A stretch of 64,000 nucleotides of DNA from a virus. Lineage: Duplodnaviria > Caudoviricetes. Every line of letters begins with the position of its first letter. Positions within the stretch are counted from its first letter, which is position 1. Where the stretch lies: IMG/VR virus record IMGVR_UViG_3300021400_000034, positions 1 through 64,000 of that record; one strand, 5' to 3'. Position numbers and translations under genes: made by a program. The notes under the pieces are model-generated. The model was given only the letters and a program-made list of their open reading frames with translations. It was not told the DNA's origin and did no database searches. This document shows positions 24,245 through 37,163 of this stretch, in pieces.

Positions 24245-25807
24245 ATGAGAATAGACGGCGAACAAGAAGACATTGTCTTTGAGCCATTGAGCAGCTTCCT
24301 GTTCAAGTGCACTTTCACTGCACCTGAACGATACAAGAAGCTCTTGACGGACTCGATTCTAGAGAAGCTGAAGTACTCAGTCGTTTCGCTGAACATCCCA
24401 AAGCTGACAGAGAAGAATCTAGAGGCTATCTCATACGGATCCTTCGCTCTGCCGTTCCCGTACTACTCTACTGGGCAGAAGGAGATGTCTATCGACTTCT
24501 TCGAGACAGACGACATGCTCATCTCACGCGTCTTCTATGTTCTTCAGTCTAAGAAGCGCTGGTCAGCTAAGACGATCTTCCGCATGTCAGACGCTGAGCT
24601 GTTCCTGCATGTCGAGATCTATCCTCAGAGAAACGCTAAAGGCTACAAATATCCGATGAAGAACCCCGTATTCGTTCGTGATTATGGCCTGATCATGAAA
24701 GGAATCAATCCGCCAGAGTTCAGCAGAACTGGAGAAGTGACATTGCTGAAGACGAAGATAGAGTTCAACACGATCGAGTCCGACTACTACGGAGAGAAAG
24801 GGAGAACATATCAAGACTCTGGAATCGATCCGACAAAAGAGAAGCACGAGTGGGATAAGCAAAAAGCCGAAGCTGCATTCATAGACACGGAGCAGATGGG
24901 TGATCGCATAGCGGAGCAGTTCGCAGAGTGGATGAAGGAAGATATGGAACGCGCTGCCAGAGAAGGTGGACCGTCTACTGGTGGCGCAGGCATGTATTAC
25001 GCTGAACAGGCTAGAACTGCGGAAGAGAGAAAGAAACTAAAACTTCCAGAGAAGAGCTCTAGAGACTTCATACTTGACAACAATGAGCTTGAAGGCAACT
25101 ATGCAAAATATTCAAAGGCTAGAAAGGATAAAGCTGTCAGCAAAGATGAGTTTGCTAGAATTAGCCTAGAGAACTTGAAGAGACTTCAGAATGCTTATAG
25201 CGGAGTTAACGAAGATTTTGCTAAGACTGGTACTGGACTCGAGATCAGAGTTGAAGGAGGAGACGTCAATAGCTGGACGTCGCATGGAGTCGGAAGCGGT
25301 GCTAACGCTTCTCATACTCTTAGCCAGAAGATGGATGTCATCCTATATAAGGACGGTGTAAGAGTTGATGCTGGTATGCTCACAGAGAGCGAGTTCAAGA
25401 CTTTGTATACAGTCATGGATGAAAATGGATTGGCGGTTAATTTCGAGTCAAGAGATATTACTAATAAGAAAAAGATGTGGCTCGACACTCAGCTCAAGAG
25501 TGCACTCGGCGATGCGGACGGAAAGGTCGTTGAGAAGAAATTTGAGAATACTTGGGCCGGCGACCGTGAAGTTGCTGTCATGGAGACTGTTGATGGGAAA
25601 GACCAGAGAAAATACACGGTCGATGTAGTCACTGGCGAGATTGTTGATAACAAGAAGCGTACCAGATATGACAAGAACAAAGATTATAGATCTGAAGCGG
25701 AAAAGCAAGCTAATGAGCAGCGGGCGAAAAAGAAGGAAGAAGATGATGTTCTAGCTGGTCTTCTAAATAGACAGCCAGGAATGAACTCCAGTGATGCGGA
25801 GCACTAA
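24245..25807 (+). CDS. Tail-tube-fold (gp19/gp54/gp48-like) protein with C-terminal extension
   Basis: N-terminal 180 aa show the F.C.F...SLNIP...IDFFET...EFS...IEF tube pattern. Confidence 0.5.
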   Translation: MRIDGEQEDIVFEPLSSFLFKCTFTAPERYKKLLTDSILEKLKYSVVSLNIPKLTEKNLEAISYGSFALPFPYYSTGQKEMSIDFFETDDMLISRVFYVLQSKKRWSAKTIFRMSDAELFLHVEIYPQRNAKGYKYPMKNPVFVRDYGLIMKGINPPEFSRTGEVTLLKTKIEFNTIESDYYGEKGRTYQDSGIDPTKEKHEWDKQKAEAAFIDTEQMGDRIAEQFAEWMKEDMERAAREGGPSTGGAGMYYAEQARTAEERKKLKLPEKSSRDFILDNNELEGNYAKYSKARKDKAVSKDEFARISLENLKRLQNAYSGVNEDFAKTGTGLEIRVEGGDVNSWTSHGVGSGANASHTLSQKMDVILYKDGVRVDAGMLTESEFKTLYTVMDENGLAVNFESRDITNKKKMWLDTQLKSALGDADGKVVEKKFENTWAGDREVAVMETVDGKDQRKYTVDVVTGEIVDNKKRTRYDKNKDYRSEAEKQANEQRAKKKEEDDVLAGLLNRQPGMNSSDAEH

Positions 25808-27249
25808 TGCAGTACAATATTTTCCAGAATGACTTCTACGAAGATAGACCTGGCGTTCCTTGGGCCTACAAAGTCACTGTGTACGCTGGAATGCTGCAGA
25901 CTCCTATTCTCGTTCTGTCAAAAGGCGTCAAGGAAGTCAATCTTCCAGACCTAGAATTGATGACGTTCCGTGTTCACTACGGAGGCAGAGCATTCGACAT
26001 TCCGACGAGATACCGCAACAGCAGCACGTTCACGATGAAGTTCAGCGAGAGAAACGACCTTCTCGCTTATCATGCTCTAGCTGGTATATTCTCGAGAACT
26101 TATGACTACGAAAGCTCATACTCGAATCTCTCATCTGATCTGCATATCAAGGTAGAGATACTCGATCCGCAGAATCTGACACAGAAGGACACTCAGCTTG
26201 ACTACGACATAGCTGCTGTAGGAAAAGGCCGAGAAGAGACTAAGAACATGGGACTCAAGACGAACGATGCAGACGCTGTCGAGATCTATGAGTTCAAGGG
26301 CTGCTTCCTCGACAAGATAGACGACTTGGAGCTTGACTACAGCTCAGAAGAGATAGTCGAATGGGGAGCCACTATTCAGTTCAATGAAGTCAAGGTCACA
26401 TATCCGCATCAGGCCAAGATCACTCTTGCAGACGACGTTGACAGAAGCGAGTCCGTCGATGTTCCTAAGAAGTCGAAAGACTCTATTTCCTTCACTAATC
26501 CAGAAGAGATCAGAACAGAGAAGCAGATCGCTGGCACTGGAAGTGGAGAAGGCGGTGGTGGAACAGGAGGAGGTGGCGCTGGAAACATGGATGGACGTCC
26601 AGGTTCAGATGGCGGCTTGAGCGCTACTGGAAACAAAGACGTCAACAGACACGGCAACTCTACTGAAGGCGTTGATCTACACAATGACAACACTGGAGAA
26701 TCTCCGAGAAGAGCAGTTGCATCTCCTGAGACGACACCGTCTCAGACTACAGAAAAAGAACCCATTATCCCTTCAGATATTGACCAGAAGGACGGAGCGG
26801 ATAGCACTATAGCTAAGGAATTCGAAACTAAGGGTGAAGCCGAGGTCGAAGGATGGGGTGAGTTGAGCAATGAAGATAAGCTTAAAATCATAAAGATGTG
26901 GAATGAGAATGGAGGAGAGGCCGAAACTGGAATGATCACGAATAAGATAGCGAATGAGTTCAGAGAAGGTTCGGCTAGCGGTGAAACATACACTGATGTT
27001 GCCGCTTATCTGAGAACTGAGGGCTATACCGAAGAGGAAATCGAAAGTGGTCTTAGAGCTGCACTAGAGGATGCTGGATATGTCGATGCAGACATTGACT
27101 CGACTCTAAAAGACTTGGAATTAAAGTCTAGGCTGAAAGAGGCTGGATTCGACGAGGAGAACGCCGATAGCGCATATAGTGGAATGGATGTTCACAAGAG
27201 CAATCCTGATGACGCTGTTGAACTGAACTCGTTCAAGGTAAGACAGTAG
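25807..27249 (+). CDS. Tail-tube-fold protein with Gly-rich/acidic C-terminal extension
   Basis: EVNLP...YGG...P...MKFSE...YEFKGCF..IDDLELDYSSEEIVEWGATIQF. Confidence 0.6.
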   Translation: MQYNIFQNDFYEDRPGVPWAYKVTVYAGMLQTPILVLSKGVKEVNLPDLELMTFRVHYGGRAFDIPTRYRNSSTFTMKFSERNDLLAYHALAGIFSRTYDYESSYSNLSSDLHIKVEILDPQNLTQKDTQLDYDIAAVGKGREETKNMGLKTNDADAVEIYEFKGCFLDKIDDLELDYSSEEIVEWGATIQFNEVKVTYPHQAKITLADDVDRSESVDVPKKSKDSISFTNPEEIRTEKQIAGTGSGEGGGGTGGGGAGNMDGRPGSDGGLSATGNKDVNRHGNSTEGVDLHNDNTGESPRRAVASPETTPSQTTEKEPIIPSDIDQKDGADSTIAKEFETKGEAEVEGWGELSNEDKLKIIKMWNENGGEAETGMITNKIANEFREGSASGETYTDVAAYLRTEGYTEEEIESGLRAALEDAGYVDADIDSTLKDLELKSRLKEAGFDEENADSAYSGMDVHKSNPDDAVELNSFKVRQ

Positions 27250-27265
27250 GACGGATAAATAATAT

Positions 27266-27592
27266 ATGCCTGGAATATACAACAGAGAAACGCTATTCTT
27301 GAAGCAGATCGTCGAAGGCCGTAGGGAAGTCGACATGGCGAGCATTGACTTTCCGACACTAGACCGTTCTAAGTCTTACGCTTGGACGTTTGTTCGACGT
27401 GATGAGCAGTGCCGTCCAGATCTGCTAGCTTATCGCATTTACAGAAATGCAGACCTCTGGTGGTTCGTGATGTGGATCAACGGCATCATGGATCCGTGGC
27501 ACGATCTCATGCCAGACGTAGCGATAAAGTATATTCCAGTCGAGCAGATCGACAACGCATTCAAGTATATCAGATTGAAGAGAGCTAAGTGA
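27266..27592 (+). CDS. 53: Baseplate wedge protein gp53-like (LysM-like)
   Basis: RPDLLAYRIY.NADLWWFVMWINGIMDP. Confidence 0.85.
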   Translation: MPGIYNRETLFLKQIVEGRREVDMASIDFPTLDRSKSYAWTFVRRDEQCRPDLLAYRIYRNADLWWFVMWINGIMDPWHDLMPDVAIKYIPVEQIDNAFKYIRLKRAK

Positions 27593-28218
27593 TGGAAGAC
27601 TACATGGCCATAGATGACTATCTCTTGAAGAAGAGCTTCAAGATGAGCGACGCATACAGCGTCGAGGTCTATGACCGTGAGCCCGCATGGAACGACCATC
27701 TCGGAGAGCTGTTCACTAAGGACGAGATCAAGAAGTATTCCGTGAATACGATCAAGGACGGCTCATACAAGGGAAGATACTTCTACTTCAAGAACTGCAA
27801 CGGATTCACTCCGCCAGTCTATAAGCCGAAAGAAGAAGTCATAGAGTTCTGCAATCGTACACAGGTCGTCTATCTCCCCAACACAGAGAAGCCTGATCCA
27901 GTGACGCTGAAGTTTCACGAGACTGAAGACCAGTACGTCGGCAAGTTCATCAAGTACTGCCTCCGCAAGAATTTCTTCGACGAGAGGGTCAACTACTATA
28001 AAGACAGCTACAATCCGTACCGCTACATCGACTGGATAAAGATTCACGTCTGGGACAACAATCTCAAGAAGAAGGTCATGACGCACATCTTCGAGTCGTG
28101 CCGCATATCGACATACGACTATGACTACAATCTAGACTATTCATCTTCTCAGGCTATTCAGCCGTCTATCGCTTTCTCATTTATAAACTACAAGATCGAC
28201 ATGAACCCGGAGAACTAA
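27589..28218 (+). CDS. Tail-tube-fold paralog
   Basis: VTLKFHET...IFESCRISTYDY..LDYSSS...IAFSF. Confidence 0.55.
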   Translation: MMEDYMAIDDYLLKKSFKMSDAYSVEVYDREPAWNDHLGELFTKDEIKKYSVNTIKDGSYKGRYFYFKNCNGFTPPVYKPKEEVIEFCNRTQVVYLPNTEKPDPVTLKFHETEDQYVGKFIKYCLRKNFFDERVNYYKDSYNPYRYIDWIKIHVWDNNLKKKVMTHIFESCRISTYDYDYNLDYSSSQAIQPSIAFSFINYKIDMNPEN

Positions 28219-28821
28219 ATGGCTAACGAGTACAACATATTCACTAGCGAGCTAGACAACCTAGCAGATCCGATGAGAACGGACCTGTTCTCTGTGGTCT
28301 TCTATGACAGCTCTGGCTACACTTTCAAGTATGCAGTTCTGGACAGCAGCCAGTTCTATCCTCATCGTGCTACGCTTCCGAAGCAGAGCAACGTTCTAGC
28401 GAAGCGCTGGTATTTCGGATCATACCGTCAGGACGTCATCAACTCTGACCGTGGTGGAGAGACTACGCTAGAGTTTTACATGCGCTGCGATCAATCTTAC
28501 AATATGAAGATGCTGCAGTTCTTAGGCGTGGCTATCAGCGACGAGTTCTTGGATGAAGAGCAGCGCTACAAGCACATCGAGTTCGACAAGAGATTCGACA
28601 AGATCGAGATAATAACGAGAGACAACGAGTTCAAAGACGGTCTGATCTACACTCTCTACAACTGCAACGTTCACGATCTGTCATTAAACGACTTAGACGC
28701 TAGCACTGCTGACATCTTGAAGCTGACGGCGACAGTGACTTACGACACTCACGACGTGAGATCGTCTAAAGAATGGAAGTACAGAGACGACATCGGAAAG
28801 ATAAGCAAGGCAATCGGATAG
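28219..28821 (+). CDS. Tail-tube-fold paralog (gp19-like)
   Basis: DPMRTDLFSV...ATLP...YTLYNC.V.DLS..DLD...LTATVTYD. Confidence 0.65.
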   Translation: MANEYNIFTSELDNLADPMRTDLFSVVFYDSSGYTFKYAVLDSSQFYPHRATLPKQSNVLAKRWYFGSYRQDVINSDRGGETTLEFYMRCDQSYNMKMLQFLGVAISDEFLDEEQRYKHIEFDKRFDKIEIITRDNEFKDGLIYTLYNCNVHDLSLNDLDASTADILKLTATVTYDTHDVRSSKEWKYRDDIGKISKAIG

Positions 28822-28824
28822 TAG

Positions 28825-29559
28825 ATGGCTAACGAGTACAACATATTCGGCAATGACTTCTTCGACAAGCCGCCTCAGCCACTGTACGCATTCACAGTGG
28901 ACTTCCGTCTGTCTGATGAGTTGAAGAACAGTGAAGTGCCGTCAGAGATCGGAGGAGATCCTCCAGACTGGCTGAAAGCGCTAGAGAAGTATCTGAAATC
29001 TAACGGCTTGGACACTCCGAAAGAGTGGGCGAAGAAGCTCGGAAAGAGCGTAGCGAAGATTCCGCTGACTCATCCGACAGCTGCAGGAAACTTTCCAGTC
29101 TACTTCCCTGGCTACATGCACACTTACCCTGGCAGGTACGACAACGCTGGACAGATCCAAGTCACGTTCAACGACAACGTCCGGAGAGACATACGCTGCA
29201 TCATAGAGCAAATGATGCACCTGGACGGCATGGGCTACAGAACCGAAGACAAAGAGGACACGACTAGACCAGCTCTGCCAGACTGCCTCTGGTTCGACAT
29301 GATCGTCCGCCTGTACGACATCAGAGAAATCCGAAAGTATGCGCCGACTGACGATCTTGGTGGAATCGATTACATCAATCTCTTCGGCGACGACGACAAA
29401 GGAGTATCTTCGAAGGGCGTGATTGAAGCTTTCAAGTACAGCAAGTGCTACATCAGCAAGATCGGAGCAGAGCAGAACACCTATGAGTCGTCCGAGAACG
29501 TGAGGACTATAGAGGCTACTATCACATATCAGGACTTTTCCAGATATAAAGGGGTATAA
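28825..29559 (+). CDS. Tail-tube-fold paralog (gp19-like)
   Basis: VYFPG...YPGR....G.IQVTFND...FKYSKCYISKIG...IEATITYQ. Confidence 0.65.
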   Translation: MANEYNIFGNDFFDKPPQPLYAFTVDFRLSDELKNSEVPSEIGGDPPDWLKALEKYLKSNGLDTPKEWAKKLGKSVAKIPLTHPTAAGNFPVYFPGYMHTYPGRYDNAGQIQVTFNDNVRRDIRCIIEQMMHLDGMGYRTEDKEDTTRPALPDCLWFDMIVRLYDIREIRKYAPTDDLGGIDYINLFGDDDKGVSSKGVIEAFKYSKCYISKIGAEQNTYESSENVRTIEATITYQDFSRYKGV

Positions 29560-34937: not shown

Positions 34938-35052
34938 TCCAAAAACATCAAAAATAAGGGGTACCACTCAGAGAGACGCGTCCCTTATTTCGATATTTAT
35001 AGGATAAATAGAATATCAAGATGCGCTTTTTGAGCGAAAAAGGACAACTGAG

Positions 35053-35400
35053 ATGTCTAATGAAGCAACTACGTCAATAGTCAAGAACAACTCCGGATTC
35101 GAGATAATGACAGCGGACGGCACCTATGAGCCGTTCTGGGGACTCATCGAGAAGAAGTCACACGGGTGGCTCTTGAAGCTCGAAGACGGTCGAGAGCTCA
35201 AGTATTCGGACGGTCACCGGTTCATGATCGACGGATGGGAGGTCTTCGTCGAGTCACTCGTGGTCGGAGACGAAGTCGCTGGCTCGAAGATCGTCGACAT
35301 AGAGGAAGTCACTGACACGTTCTATGGTCCGTACTCGGTGAGAGGCCATGAGTACGCGACGGTGGACGAAAAAGGAGATGTCGTCCAGAGTCACCACAAC
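35053..35400 (+). mobile_element. Atypically split intein, IntC fragment (TerL family)
   Basis: Block B SDGH, L.VGD, block F/G FYGPYSV...SHHN|C; lacks block A/Cys1. Confidence 0.85.
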
Positions 35401-36132
35401 TGCGAGTTCATCGGATCTTCGACTACGCTGGTCGAACTTGACAAGCTCGCTAAGCTGTTCCCGACTGAGCCTAAGGAGTTCAAGTACGGGTACATGTGCT
35501 CGATCTGGGAAGAGCCTCAGCCTGGGTGCGTCTACGTGATGGGAGTCGACACTGCGACGGGTTCCGGTCTCGACTTCTCGGCCGTTCAAGTTCTCAAGCT
35601 CGTGTCGAAAGACAAGTTCGAGCAAGTCTGCACGTACCACGACGACCGCACGACGGTCGGCAAGTTCAGTCAGGTCGTGAAGGATCTGAGCGAGTGGTAC
35701 AACGATGCTCTGATAATCATCGAAAACAACGGTCCTGGCGGAAAAGTCGCGGAAGAGCTATGGTACACGCTCGACTGCCAGAACATCATAAACACCGATC
35801 CGCACGGAATAGGAACTAACGCTAACAAAGCCAGCAAGCTCGAAGCTTGTCTGATGCTGCAGCGTGAAGTGAACAGGGACTCGCTAGTCATACGTGACTC
35901 AGCGACTCTGAAAGAGCTCACGACGTTCGCCGAAGTGAGCCCAAACGTGTTCAAGGCGACTCCTGGAAACCACGACGACTTGGTCTCAGCTCTCTACTGG
36001 GCCGTCTACGCGATCTTCCAGCCAGAGATCGATCTTGACAATCTGAAAGTCGACAAGAGCAAGAGGGAGGATCTAGTTGAAGTCCCGCAGACAGTGTTTC
36101 CGGACGATGACGACGGAATATGGACGTTCTGA
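35053..36132 (+). CDS. 17: Split-intein C-fragment fused to the C-terminal (nuclease) half of the large terminase
   Basis: aa1-116 Hint-like, ending SHHN; then CEFIGSSTTL, YVMGVDTATG..LDFS, IIENN, HDDLVSAL of T4 gp17. Confidence 0.9.
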   Translation: MSNEATTSIVKNNSGFEIMTADGTYEPFWGLIEKKSHGWLLKLEDGRELKYSDGHRFMIDGWEVFVESLVVGDEVAGSKIVDIEEVTDTFYGPYSVRGHEYATVDEKGDVVQSHHNCEFIGSSTTLVELDKLAKLFPTEPKEFKYGYMCSIWEEPQPGCVYVMGVDTATGSGLDFSAVQVLKLVSKDKFEQVCTYHDDRTTVGKFSQVVKDLSEWYNDALIIIENNGPGGKVAEELWYTLDCQNIINTDPHGIGTNANKASKLEACLMLQREVNRDSLVIRDSATLKELTTFAEVSPNVFKATPGNHDDLVSALYWAVYAIFQPEIDLDNLKVDKSKREDLVEVPQTVFPDDDDGIWTF

Positions 36133-36658
36133 CGAGCACAAGAAGCTCACTAAGCGTCGTAATAAAAACGTAAAGAAGTCACCGAAGAAAAAGATAATCG
36201 ACCAAGACAAGAAGCGTAAGCTCAGACACTCGCGACAGTGGCGAGAGCTCAAACGCTATCTGATTTCGAAGAGAGGCGAGATTGACGAGATAACTGGAAA
36301 GAAGATCATCAAGGAGGACAAGCTGACTTGCCATCACATGAGGCTCACTGCCGAGAAGTATGGAGACTTCAGCAATCCCGATGACTTCATGCTGCTAGCT
36401 GAGTCGACCCATCAAGTGGTTCACTGGCTGTGGCAACTCACGAAAGGCGAAGACTTTTCTATATTAGATAAGCTCAGAGACACTCTGAAAAGAATGAAGG
36501 AACTGGAAGATGAAGATAGCCGGACTGGATCTATCGATAACTCACACGGGTGCCGTGATAGTCACTCTGGACGAGACGCTGACTGTGAAGGAAGTGACTT
36601 GGCTGACATTCACGACTACGAAGAAGTACTCGAGCGACAACTGTCTATGGTATGCTGA
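36107..36658 (+). CDS. HNH endonuclease-like protein
   Basis: S.QW..LK...DEITG...LTCHH...NPDDFMLL..STH..VH; start codon uncertain. Confidence 0.65.
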   Translation: MTTEYGRSDEHKKLTKRRNKNVKKSPKKKIIDQDKKRKLRHSRQWRELKRYLISKRGEIDEITGKKIIKEDKLTCHHMRLTAEKYGDFSNPDDFMLLAESTHQVVHWLWQLTKGEDFSILDKLRDTLKRMKELEDEDSRTGSIDNSHGCRDSHSGRDADCEGSDLADIHDYEEVLERQLSMVC

Positions 36659-37163
36659 AGAGCAGTTCGCGGACAAGTATGACAAGTACAAGTTCATGCA
36701 GGACCGCATACTCGACTTCGTAAGAGACGCTGACATGGTCGCAGTCGAAGACTACGCTTTCGGCGCGACGGGCCAGATAGGCTTGGTGTTCGACCTCGCT
36801 GAGTTCGAAGGCTGGATCCGACAGTCGATCTGGCGCACAGGAAAGCCTCTCTACCTCTACTCTCCGATGACGATCAAGAAGGTATTCACTGGCCACGGAG
36901 ACTCGGACAAGAAGTCGATGTGGAACAGCTATGTAAAGATTTCTGAACCTAAGCCAGACTTGAGCGCTATGCCTCTAGTCACTAACGGAAAGAAAGGCGC
37001 GAAAGGAACGTCAGACGTGGTTGACGCGTACGCTGCTGCGATGACGCTGAGAACTGAGCTTCTCATCGAGCGAGACGGAGCCGCTGCATTCCCCAAGCAC
37101 ATTCAAGAATTCTGGAAGAATAGAACTCGGACGGTCATACAGAGACCAAAGGATCAATTGTAA
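36510..37163 (+). CDS. ruvC: RuvC-like Holliday junction resolvase
   Basis: IAGLDLSITHTG, VAVEDY, LAE, P.TIKKVFTGHG.SDK, DVVDAY. Confidence 0.88.
   Translation: MKIAGLDLSITHTGAVIVTLDETLTVKEVTWLTFTTTKKYSSDNCLWYAEEQFADKYDKYKFMQDRILDFVRDADMVAVEDYAFGATGQIGLVFDLAEFEGWIRQSIWRTGKPLYLYSPMTIKKVFTGHGDSDKKSMWNSYVKISEPKPDLSAMPLVTNGKKGAKGTSDVVDAYAAAMTLRTELLIERDGAAAFPKHIQEFWKNRTRTVIQRPKDQL

Follow-up and report, generated by a model that had tools for sequence, protein, structure and literature searches.

A phage large terminase encoded by two distant genes, each carrying a predicted split-intein fragment

The large terminase of a 243,336-bp phage genome is encoded by two genes lying about half a genome apart, one for the ATPase and one for the nuclease, and each half is extended at the break by part of an intein. 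This observation is real, essential and conserved, and the sequences indicate that class 1 protein trans-splicing very probably joins the two halves into one packaging motor. The genome is a single complete record with an exact 107-bp terminal repeat; its first 64,000 nucleotides, referred to below as the window, hold the nuclease half only.

The C-half gene and its intein fragment

The C-half ORF (359 aa) occupies positions 35053-36132 of the window on the plus strand in the list of open reading frames, with a Shine-Dalgarno-like AAGGA (35040..35044, +) placed 8 nt 5' of its ATG. The first 116 residues (35053..35400, +), assigned to an IntC by profile, HMM, Foldseek, residue conservation and pN/pS, contain no Cys and terminate in HHN, and Cys117 (TGC at 35401) and the sequence CEFIGSS come next. 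The remaining 243 aa (35401..36132, +) form the C-extein, which consists of this Cys+1 and an RNase H-like nuclease domain recognised by Pfam and by alignment with T4. An earlier note on this DNA, made from the sequence alone, had described the 116-aa Cys-free leader with its block B SDGH, Cys117 at 35401, the gp17 nuclease and the Shine-Dalgarno sequence, and all of these stand.

Terminase_6C was matched over residues 163-318 of the C-half (Pfam, E=9.7e-8) and T4 gp17 with E=1e-18; counted along the gp17 alignment, the T4 triad D401/E458/D542 corresponds to D166/E224/D309. Cys117 is equivalent to residue 354 of T4 gp17, the first residue of the hinge 354-364 which connects ATPase subdomain II to the nuclease. 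From these alignments the nuclease looks intact, and the break coincides with the domain boundary.

Within the IntC, block B is SDGH at residues 52-55 (S52-x-x-H55), block G is H115-N116 and block F reads YGP, with Gly92 replacing the usual Asp. All the residues of a class 1 intein are present in the two fragments taken together (Cys1, block B His, penultimate His, terminal Asn and Cys+1), and the Asp at block F position 4, common but not universal in this class, is absent. Gly92 is invariant in 10 homologues and replaced by Thr in sister lineages, and Asp is found at this position in 52/70 related inteins. H55, H115, N116 and C117 are unchanged in 10/10 C-half homologues. Values of pN/pS for the IntC range from 0.08 to 0.31, with synonymous sites near saturation for distant pairs, and the IntC is under purifying selection. 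A cysteine-less split intein is one with Ser or Thr at positions 1 and +1 (PMC12707363); since the present intein uses Cys1 and Cys+1, it is not cysteine-less despite its Cys-free IntC, and this label was rejected.

When residues 1-117 were used alone, Pfam and PHROGs gave no match, which reflects the limit of their sensitivity and is no evidence against a Hint fold. A profile of 10 IntC homologues matched CatC (6dsl_B) with E=5.5e-4 and gp41-1 at 0.01. Foldseek analysis of an AlphaFold model of the IntC (mean pLDDT 70) placed CatC, at only about 24% identity, at the top and returned inteins for most of the list, none of them with E<=0.001. An HMM built from four independent contiguous inteins, which occupy the same site in other phages, was run against the 4253 reading frames of the genome; the C-half ORF was the only significant match (E=2.8e-8, the next one being at 0.17). 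The Hint similarity of residues 1-116 proposed in the earlier note is real, as found both by this site-specific HMM and by the match to CatC.

The T4-like late-promoter variant GGATAAATA, which the earlier note had placed at 35002, was located by its motif upstream of the C-half gene (35002..35010, +), and its core is kept at the same place in five related loci (L002-L005 and L010). ATAAATA is found upstream of ORFs in 51 of its 78 genome occurrences versus 3.7 expected. The N-half gene is preceded by the motif GTAAATA, where relatives have GATAAATA or TATAAATA, and the motifs on both halves are putative late promoters. The C-half promoter lies within a 7-bp inverted repeat (about 34994-35010). 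A larger inverted repeat (34952..34990, +), also noticed earlier as a hairpin, is present (-12 kcal/mol, z=-2.64, 4/200 shuffles as good), but only its left arm is conserved in L002-L004 and L010. It was rejected as a conserved control element because the right arm is not kept in relatives, and is probably not functional as drawn. The sequence AAATAAGGGGTACCAC at window 34952-34968 occurs nowhere else in the genome; L002-L004 and L010 have kept it ahead of the C-half promoter, and L005 has kept it in part.

Two other features of the window were recorded. An HNH-family gene (36077-36658) lies directly 3' of the C-half and is kept together with a RuvC-like gene (36510-37163) in L002, L004, L007 and L010; as a conserved neighbour of the latter, it was ruled out as the fracturing endonuclease, and instead of being mobile it may assist packaging or processing as a cofactor. 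A series of related ORFs covers 24245-29559, at least two of which have weak tail-tube matches (27589-28218 and 28219-28821).

The distant N-half and its endonuclease cassette

In agreement with the earlier note, no TerL N-half was found inside the 64-kb window. The search of the whole 243,336-bp record recovered a single ATPase gene with the expected IntN tail (298 aa; G000:C1 164784-165680, +), which is the sole terminase ATPase, and no intact terL, other terminase or second IntC. Its N-extein (266 aa; G000:C1 164784-165581, +) contains Walker A and Walker B motifs and ends in QEYA, followed by a 32-residue tail beginning with Cys1-Cys2 (G000:C1 165582-165680, +). This tail, taken alone, is unrecognised by HMMs from distant lineages, and it was identified as an IntN from its position, its Cys1, alignment with closer relatives and co-folding. 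Removal of the intein parts generates the junction QEYA-CEFIG in a 509-aa protein, matching the QE(Y/F)x-CxFxGS of intein-free relatives; the insertion site QE(Y/F)x-CxFxG of gp17-like terminases is the same junction as in contiguous-intein and intein-free relatives.

Co-folding of the IntC with the IntN gave a score of 0.90 versus 0.02 for the best control, with runs agreeing in 100% of contacts and a partner pLDDT of at least 91; the mark reached by this result was also reached by 58/80 solved pairs and 2/110 mismatched pairs. A like complex (Cat, 6DSL) has already been solved, so the pass may reflect a structure that the folding model had learnt, and as regards splicing it shows likeness only.

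Round the circle, the gap between the N-half and the C-half measures 128,651 bp in one direction and 112,601 bp in the opposite one, and this layout is kept across the clade described below, which bears out the earlier view of fully unlinked halves. The same note had opposed the gene to the usual order of N-half, endonuclease and C-half; the halves are indeed separated, but an endonuclease gene persists beside the N-half. The portal gene (180648-182258) is at a place apart from both halves, and so is a weak candidate for the small terminase (192079-192774).

The Vsr/DUF559-like endonuclease gene (469 aa; G000:C1 165787-167196, +) matches DUF559 (E=2.3e-4, above the cut-off) and Vsr (E=4.9e-4, below the cut-off), and corresponds to the free-standing endonuclease, Vsr-like or GIY-YIG, that follows the IntN in a fractured gene. 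Directly after its stop codon, a second, stranded copy of the IntN is found in which Ser replaces Cys1 (G000:C1 167197-167295, +). A stable hairpin (L001:9682-9790, z=-3.43) is located ahead of the endonuclease start; Dassa et al. describe a hairpin before such endonuclease genes (PMC2677866).

The origin of this arrangement is suggested by an endonuclease-free relative, L150, whose N-extein is 85-100% identical per 60 nt to that of the present locus, L001 (at least 93% in 12/13 windows), the two diverging at the last few codons. The fused IntN of L150 is 96% identical to the stranded copy of L001, and the match continues into the downstream gene, leaving in L001 an insert of 1615 bp which starts at the extein-intein boundary. 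Since the exteins match up to this boundary and the stranded copy continues the L150 sequence, the genome corresponds to the L150 allele plus a 1615-bp insert made of a new IntN and the endonuclease. The new IntN is AT-richer (GC3 of 0.34 versus 0.72). The cassette (L001:9583-11296, G000:C1:165582-167295) is also present at L143, L024, L153 and L154, and stranded IntN copies recur in L024, L153, L154 and G001. The last one has two copies; one of them shares 86% identity with the present genome's fused IntN, and an endonuclease remnant precedes one of the two. Two close relatives with the endonuclease, L023 and L046, have no stranded IntN in the loci examined. Cys1 is mostly absent from stranded IntN copies and always present in fused ones, and within this lineage one IntN allele takes the place of another at an identity of about 60-70%. 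These comparisons suggest that the putative endonuclease homes into alleles that are split, the extein providing the left homology arm and the old IntN the right one. Between the N-half locus and uvsX lies an opposite-facing island (L001:11682-15763, minus strand) of DNA-methyltransferase-like, helicase-like and unrecognised genes, the content of which differs among relatives.

Conservation of the fracture and alternatives to splicing

Among 120 N-half homologues (53-100% identity), 119 end in QE[YFH]x-C plus a tail, the exception being a fragment, and the tail is 30-39 aa long in 116 of these 119. Both halves were found in 15 records, namely this genome, thirteen from IMG/VR and JAEEGH010000336.1. 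They are 45-134 kb apart in 14/15, in tandem, convergent or divergent orientation, and the records with separated halves include two genomes that are complete, at 416 and 424 kb. One lineage (G011, L108, L109 and L121) has the halves head to head on opposite strands. In this sister lineage (L142:6837-9070; L108, L109, L121) the halves are 107 bp apart with an IntN tail of 76 aa, and a 454-aa gene lies between them in L121. No collinear N-endonuclease-C locus was found in the clade among the loci fetched.

In a nuclease tree obtained by a quick search, the 14/14 placed two-half records form one clade (SH-aLRT 95). Contiguous-intein and intein-free terminases at the same site fall outside it, with the exception of P0155, an intact intein-free terminase whose long branch arises within the split clade. 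The placement of P0155 is uncertain, and it may be either a misplaced relative or a reversion. Distances between N-exteins and between C-exteins were correlated (Mantel r=0.79, p=0.001), as were those of IntN and IntC (r=0.74); this agreement is one of shared ancestry and not a proof of co-evolution. Two close relatives, G001 and G002, encode a second ATPase-only terminase paralogue (L013, L014; G002:C1:38381-39109, G001:C1:70273-71022), which is intein-free, 258 aa long, 29% identical, ends just past the junction motif and is absent from G000. A search for fused longer forms (630-2000 aa) gave only distant matches of 25-31% identity, which is weak evidence. Among the 40 cultured phages listed, none shared more than about 42% identity with the N-half. 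GTDB genomes contained no relative and therefore gave no host clue. The name of a 243,284-bp assembly points to a sheep-rumen study, from which we infer a rumen habitat.

On these grounds the large terminase would be made as two late proteins, an ATPase-IntN of 298 aa and an IntC-nuclease of 359 aa, expressed together from genes about half a genome apart. The short IntN would dock into the IntC and complete the Hint fold. A thioester at Cys1 would then be transferred to Cys+1 and Asn116 would cyclise, with the assistance of His55 and His115. Removal of the intein would join QEYA to CEFIG and yield a gp17-like motor of 509 aa, in which ATPase and nuclease are connected where the hinge between them begins. 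That the IntC is under purifying selection makes trans-splicing very likely.

The main rival is that the intein fragments serve only as a docking clamp, or allow C-terminal cleavage only, and that the terminase works as two non-covalent chains like the intein-free split NrdA of Aeh1. The missing block F Asp speaks for it, since this residue is catalytic in many class 1 inteins (PMC7891396) and is lacking across the whole clade, whereas most related inteins keep it. The break at the hinge also makes a non-covalent assembly plausible, and T4-like phages do have non-covalent two-chain enzymes (PMC2677866). However, lineages whose IntC is only 22-34% identical to this one retain all three splicing residues as well as both His (the penultimate His being Tyr in one), and Cys1 is retained wherever the IntN is fused and mostly lost where it is stranded. 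An unspliced complex would moreover carry an intein of about 148 aa within the hinge. Linkage between the domains is important in T4, where the C-domain on its own has about 13-fold lower activity and does not respond to ATP (PMC3074133). We consider such a clamp unlikely.

Another reading takes the gene for a relic, or the separation for an assembly artefact, with another terminase doing the packaging. The record is metagenomic and the relatives G001 and G002 carry the extra ATPase-only paralogue, but G000 has no other terminase, seven contigs encode the identical C-half protein, the 243,284-bp assembly among them, the same separation is seen in 13 other records and the IntC is under purifying selection. 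This reading is already largely refuted and is very improbable. Joining of the halves by RNA trans-splicing or programmed DNA rearrangement found no support, even though group I introns split terL in Jug phages (PMC12880540), and it is equally improbable, as the additions to the two halves encode protein, resemble an intein and are selected at the protein level, and start, stop and promoter motif are present separately for each half.

With trans-splicing as the preferred reading, an intein at this site may have been split first, its halves becoming independent late genes which were then separated by rearrangement in the ancestor of the clade. The Vsr-like endonuclease would since have spread at the N-half alone, entering with a new IntN at the extein-intein boundary and leaving the resident IntN behind. 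Chances seem evenly balanced for the whole of a broader proposal, in which a clade of rumen and gut jumbo phages would build its motor from unlinked genes through an intein that lacks the block F Asp, and the endonuclease would have adapted to the uncoupling by N-half-only homing with a replacement IntN, the old IntN serving as right arm and the IntN turning over while the distant IntC stays compatible.

Relation to known split inteins and significance

Judging from its host protein, insertion site, fragment sizes and best match, the intein belongs to the AceL/GOS/Cat family of TerL inteins. AceL and GOS presumably occupy the same CEF site, and intein-bearing relatives at exactly this site were found in the present analysis. 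Members of the family (Thiel 2014; Bachmann and Mootz 2015; Stevens 2018; all per review PMC11766414; PDB 6DSL) share with it the terminase host, Cys+1 and an SxxH block B, and have an IntN of 25-37 aa and an IntC of 104-115 aa versus 32 and 116 aa here (PMC11766414). CatC is the best match of this IntC in both sequence and structure, and in vitro splicing has been described for AceL-TerL, GOS-TerL and Cat (PMC11766414). The present intein differs by its low identity to CatC, the lack of the block F Asp, its Cys1-Cys2 start and the distance of 113 kb between halves that are elsewhere encoded at one locus. The earlier note had seen in it a potentially orthogonal split intein. Orthogonality within the family is doubtful, because the IntN of GOS and AceL are interchangeable (PMC11766414) and IntN alleles swap in this lineage.

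The fractured genes of Dassa et al. (2009, PMC2677866) likewise have a split intein in an essential phage gene, with the terminase among the hosts, and a free-standing Vsr-like endonuclease directly after the IntN. Their halves keep one locus and one orientation with the endonuclease inside the intein between them, whereas here they are uncoupled and the endonuclease has stayed beside the N-half, in a cassette that starts at the extein-intein boundary and brings a replacement IntN. The layout matches step IV of the model proposed by these authors, a later uncoupling of the halves, for which their only examples are the cyanobacterial DnaE and the Nanoarchaeum equitans polymerase (PMC2677866). 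DnaE and PolB are also encoded at separate loci and trans-spliced (PMC2677866), but they are replicative polymerases of cellular hosts with a typical split (long IntN, short IntC). Among cultured phages, Aeromonas phage PX29 (17A/17B, annotated with N- and C-intein) and Vibrio phages EniLVp02 and 1.244.A have the terminase in two genes, the second of which matches the present C-half across IntC and nuclease; unlike here, their halves are adjacent or overlapping in a T4-like packaging/tail operon. We found no paper on unlinked split-intein halves in a phage, in a literature search that covered mainly papers available without subscription. As far as this literature goes the layout is new for a phage, while the intein family is already known.

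The fracture provides a phage example of the last gene-breaking step of Dassa et al., in an essential late protein, with the uncoupled halves fixed in a clade whose genomes measure about 240-420 kb. It suggests how a homing endonuclease may stay mobile once its intein can no longer home as a unit. Classification and completeness checks based on terL would find the marker truncated or absent in these phages. The clade also represents dozens of natural pairs of short IntN and long IntC from a warm gut habitat, and its natural series of IntN alleles, tolerated by one IntC lineage, makes the specificity of the IntN and the need for a block F Asp directly testable.
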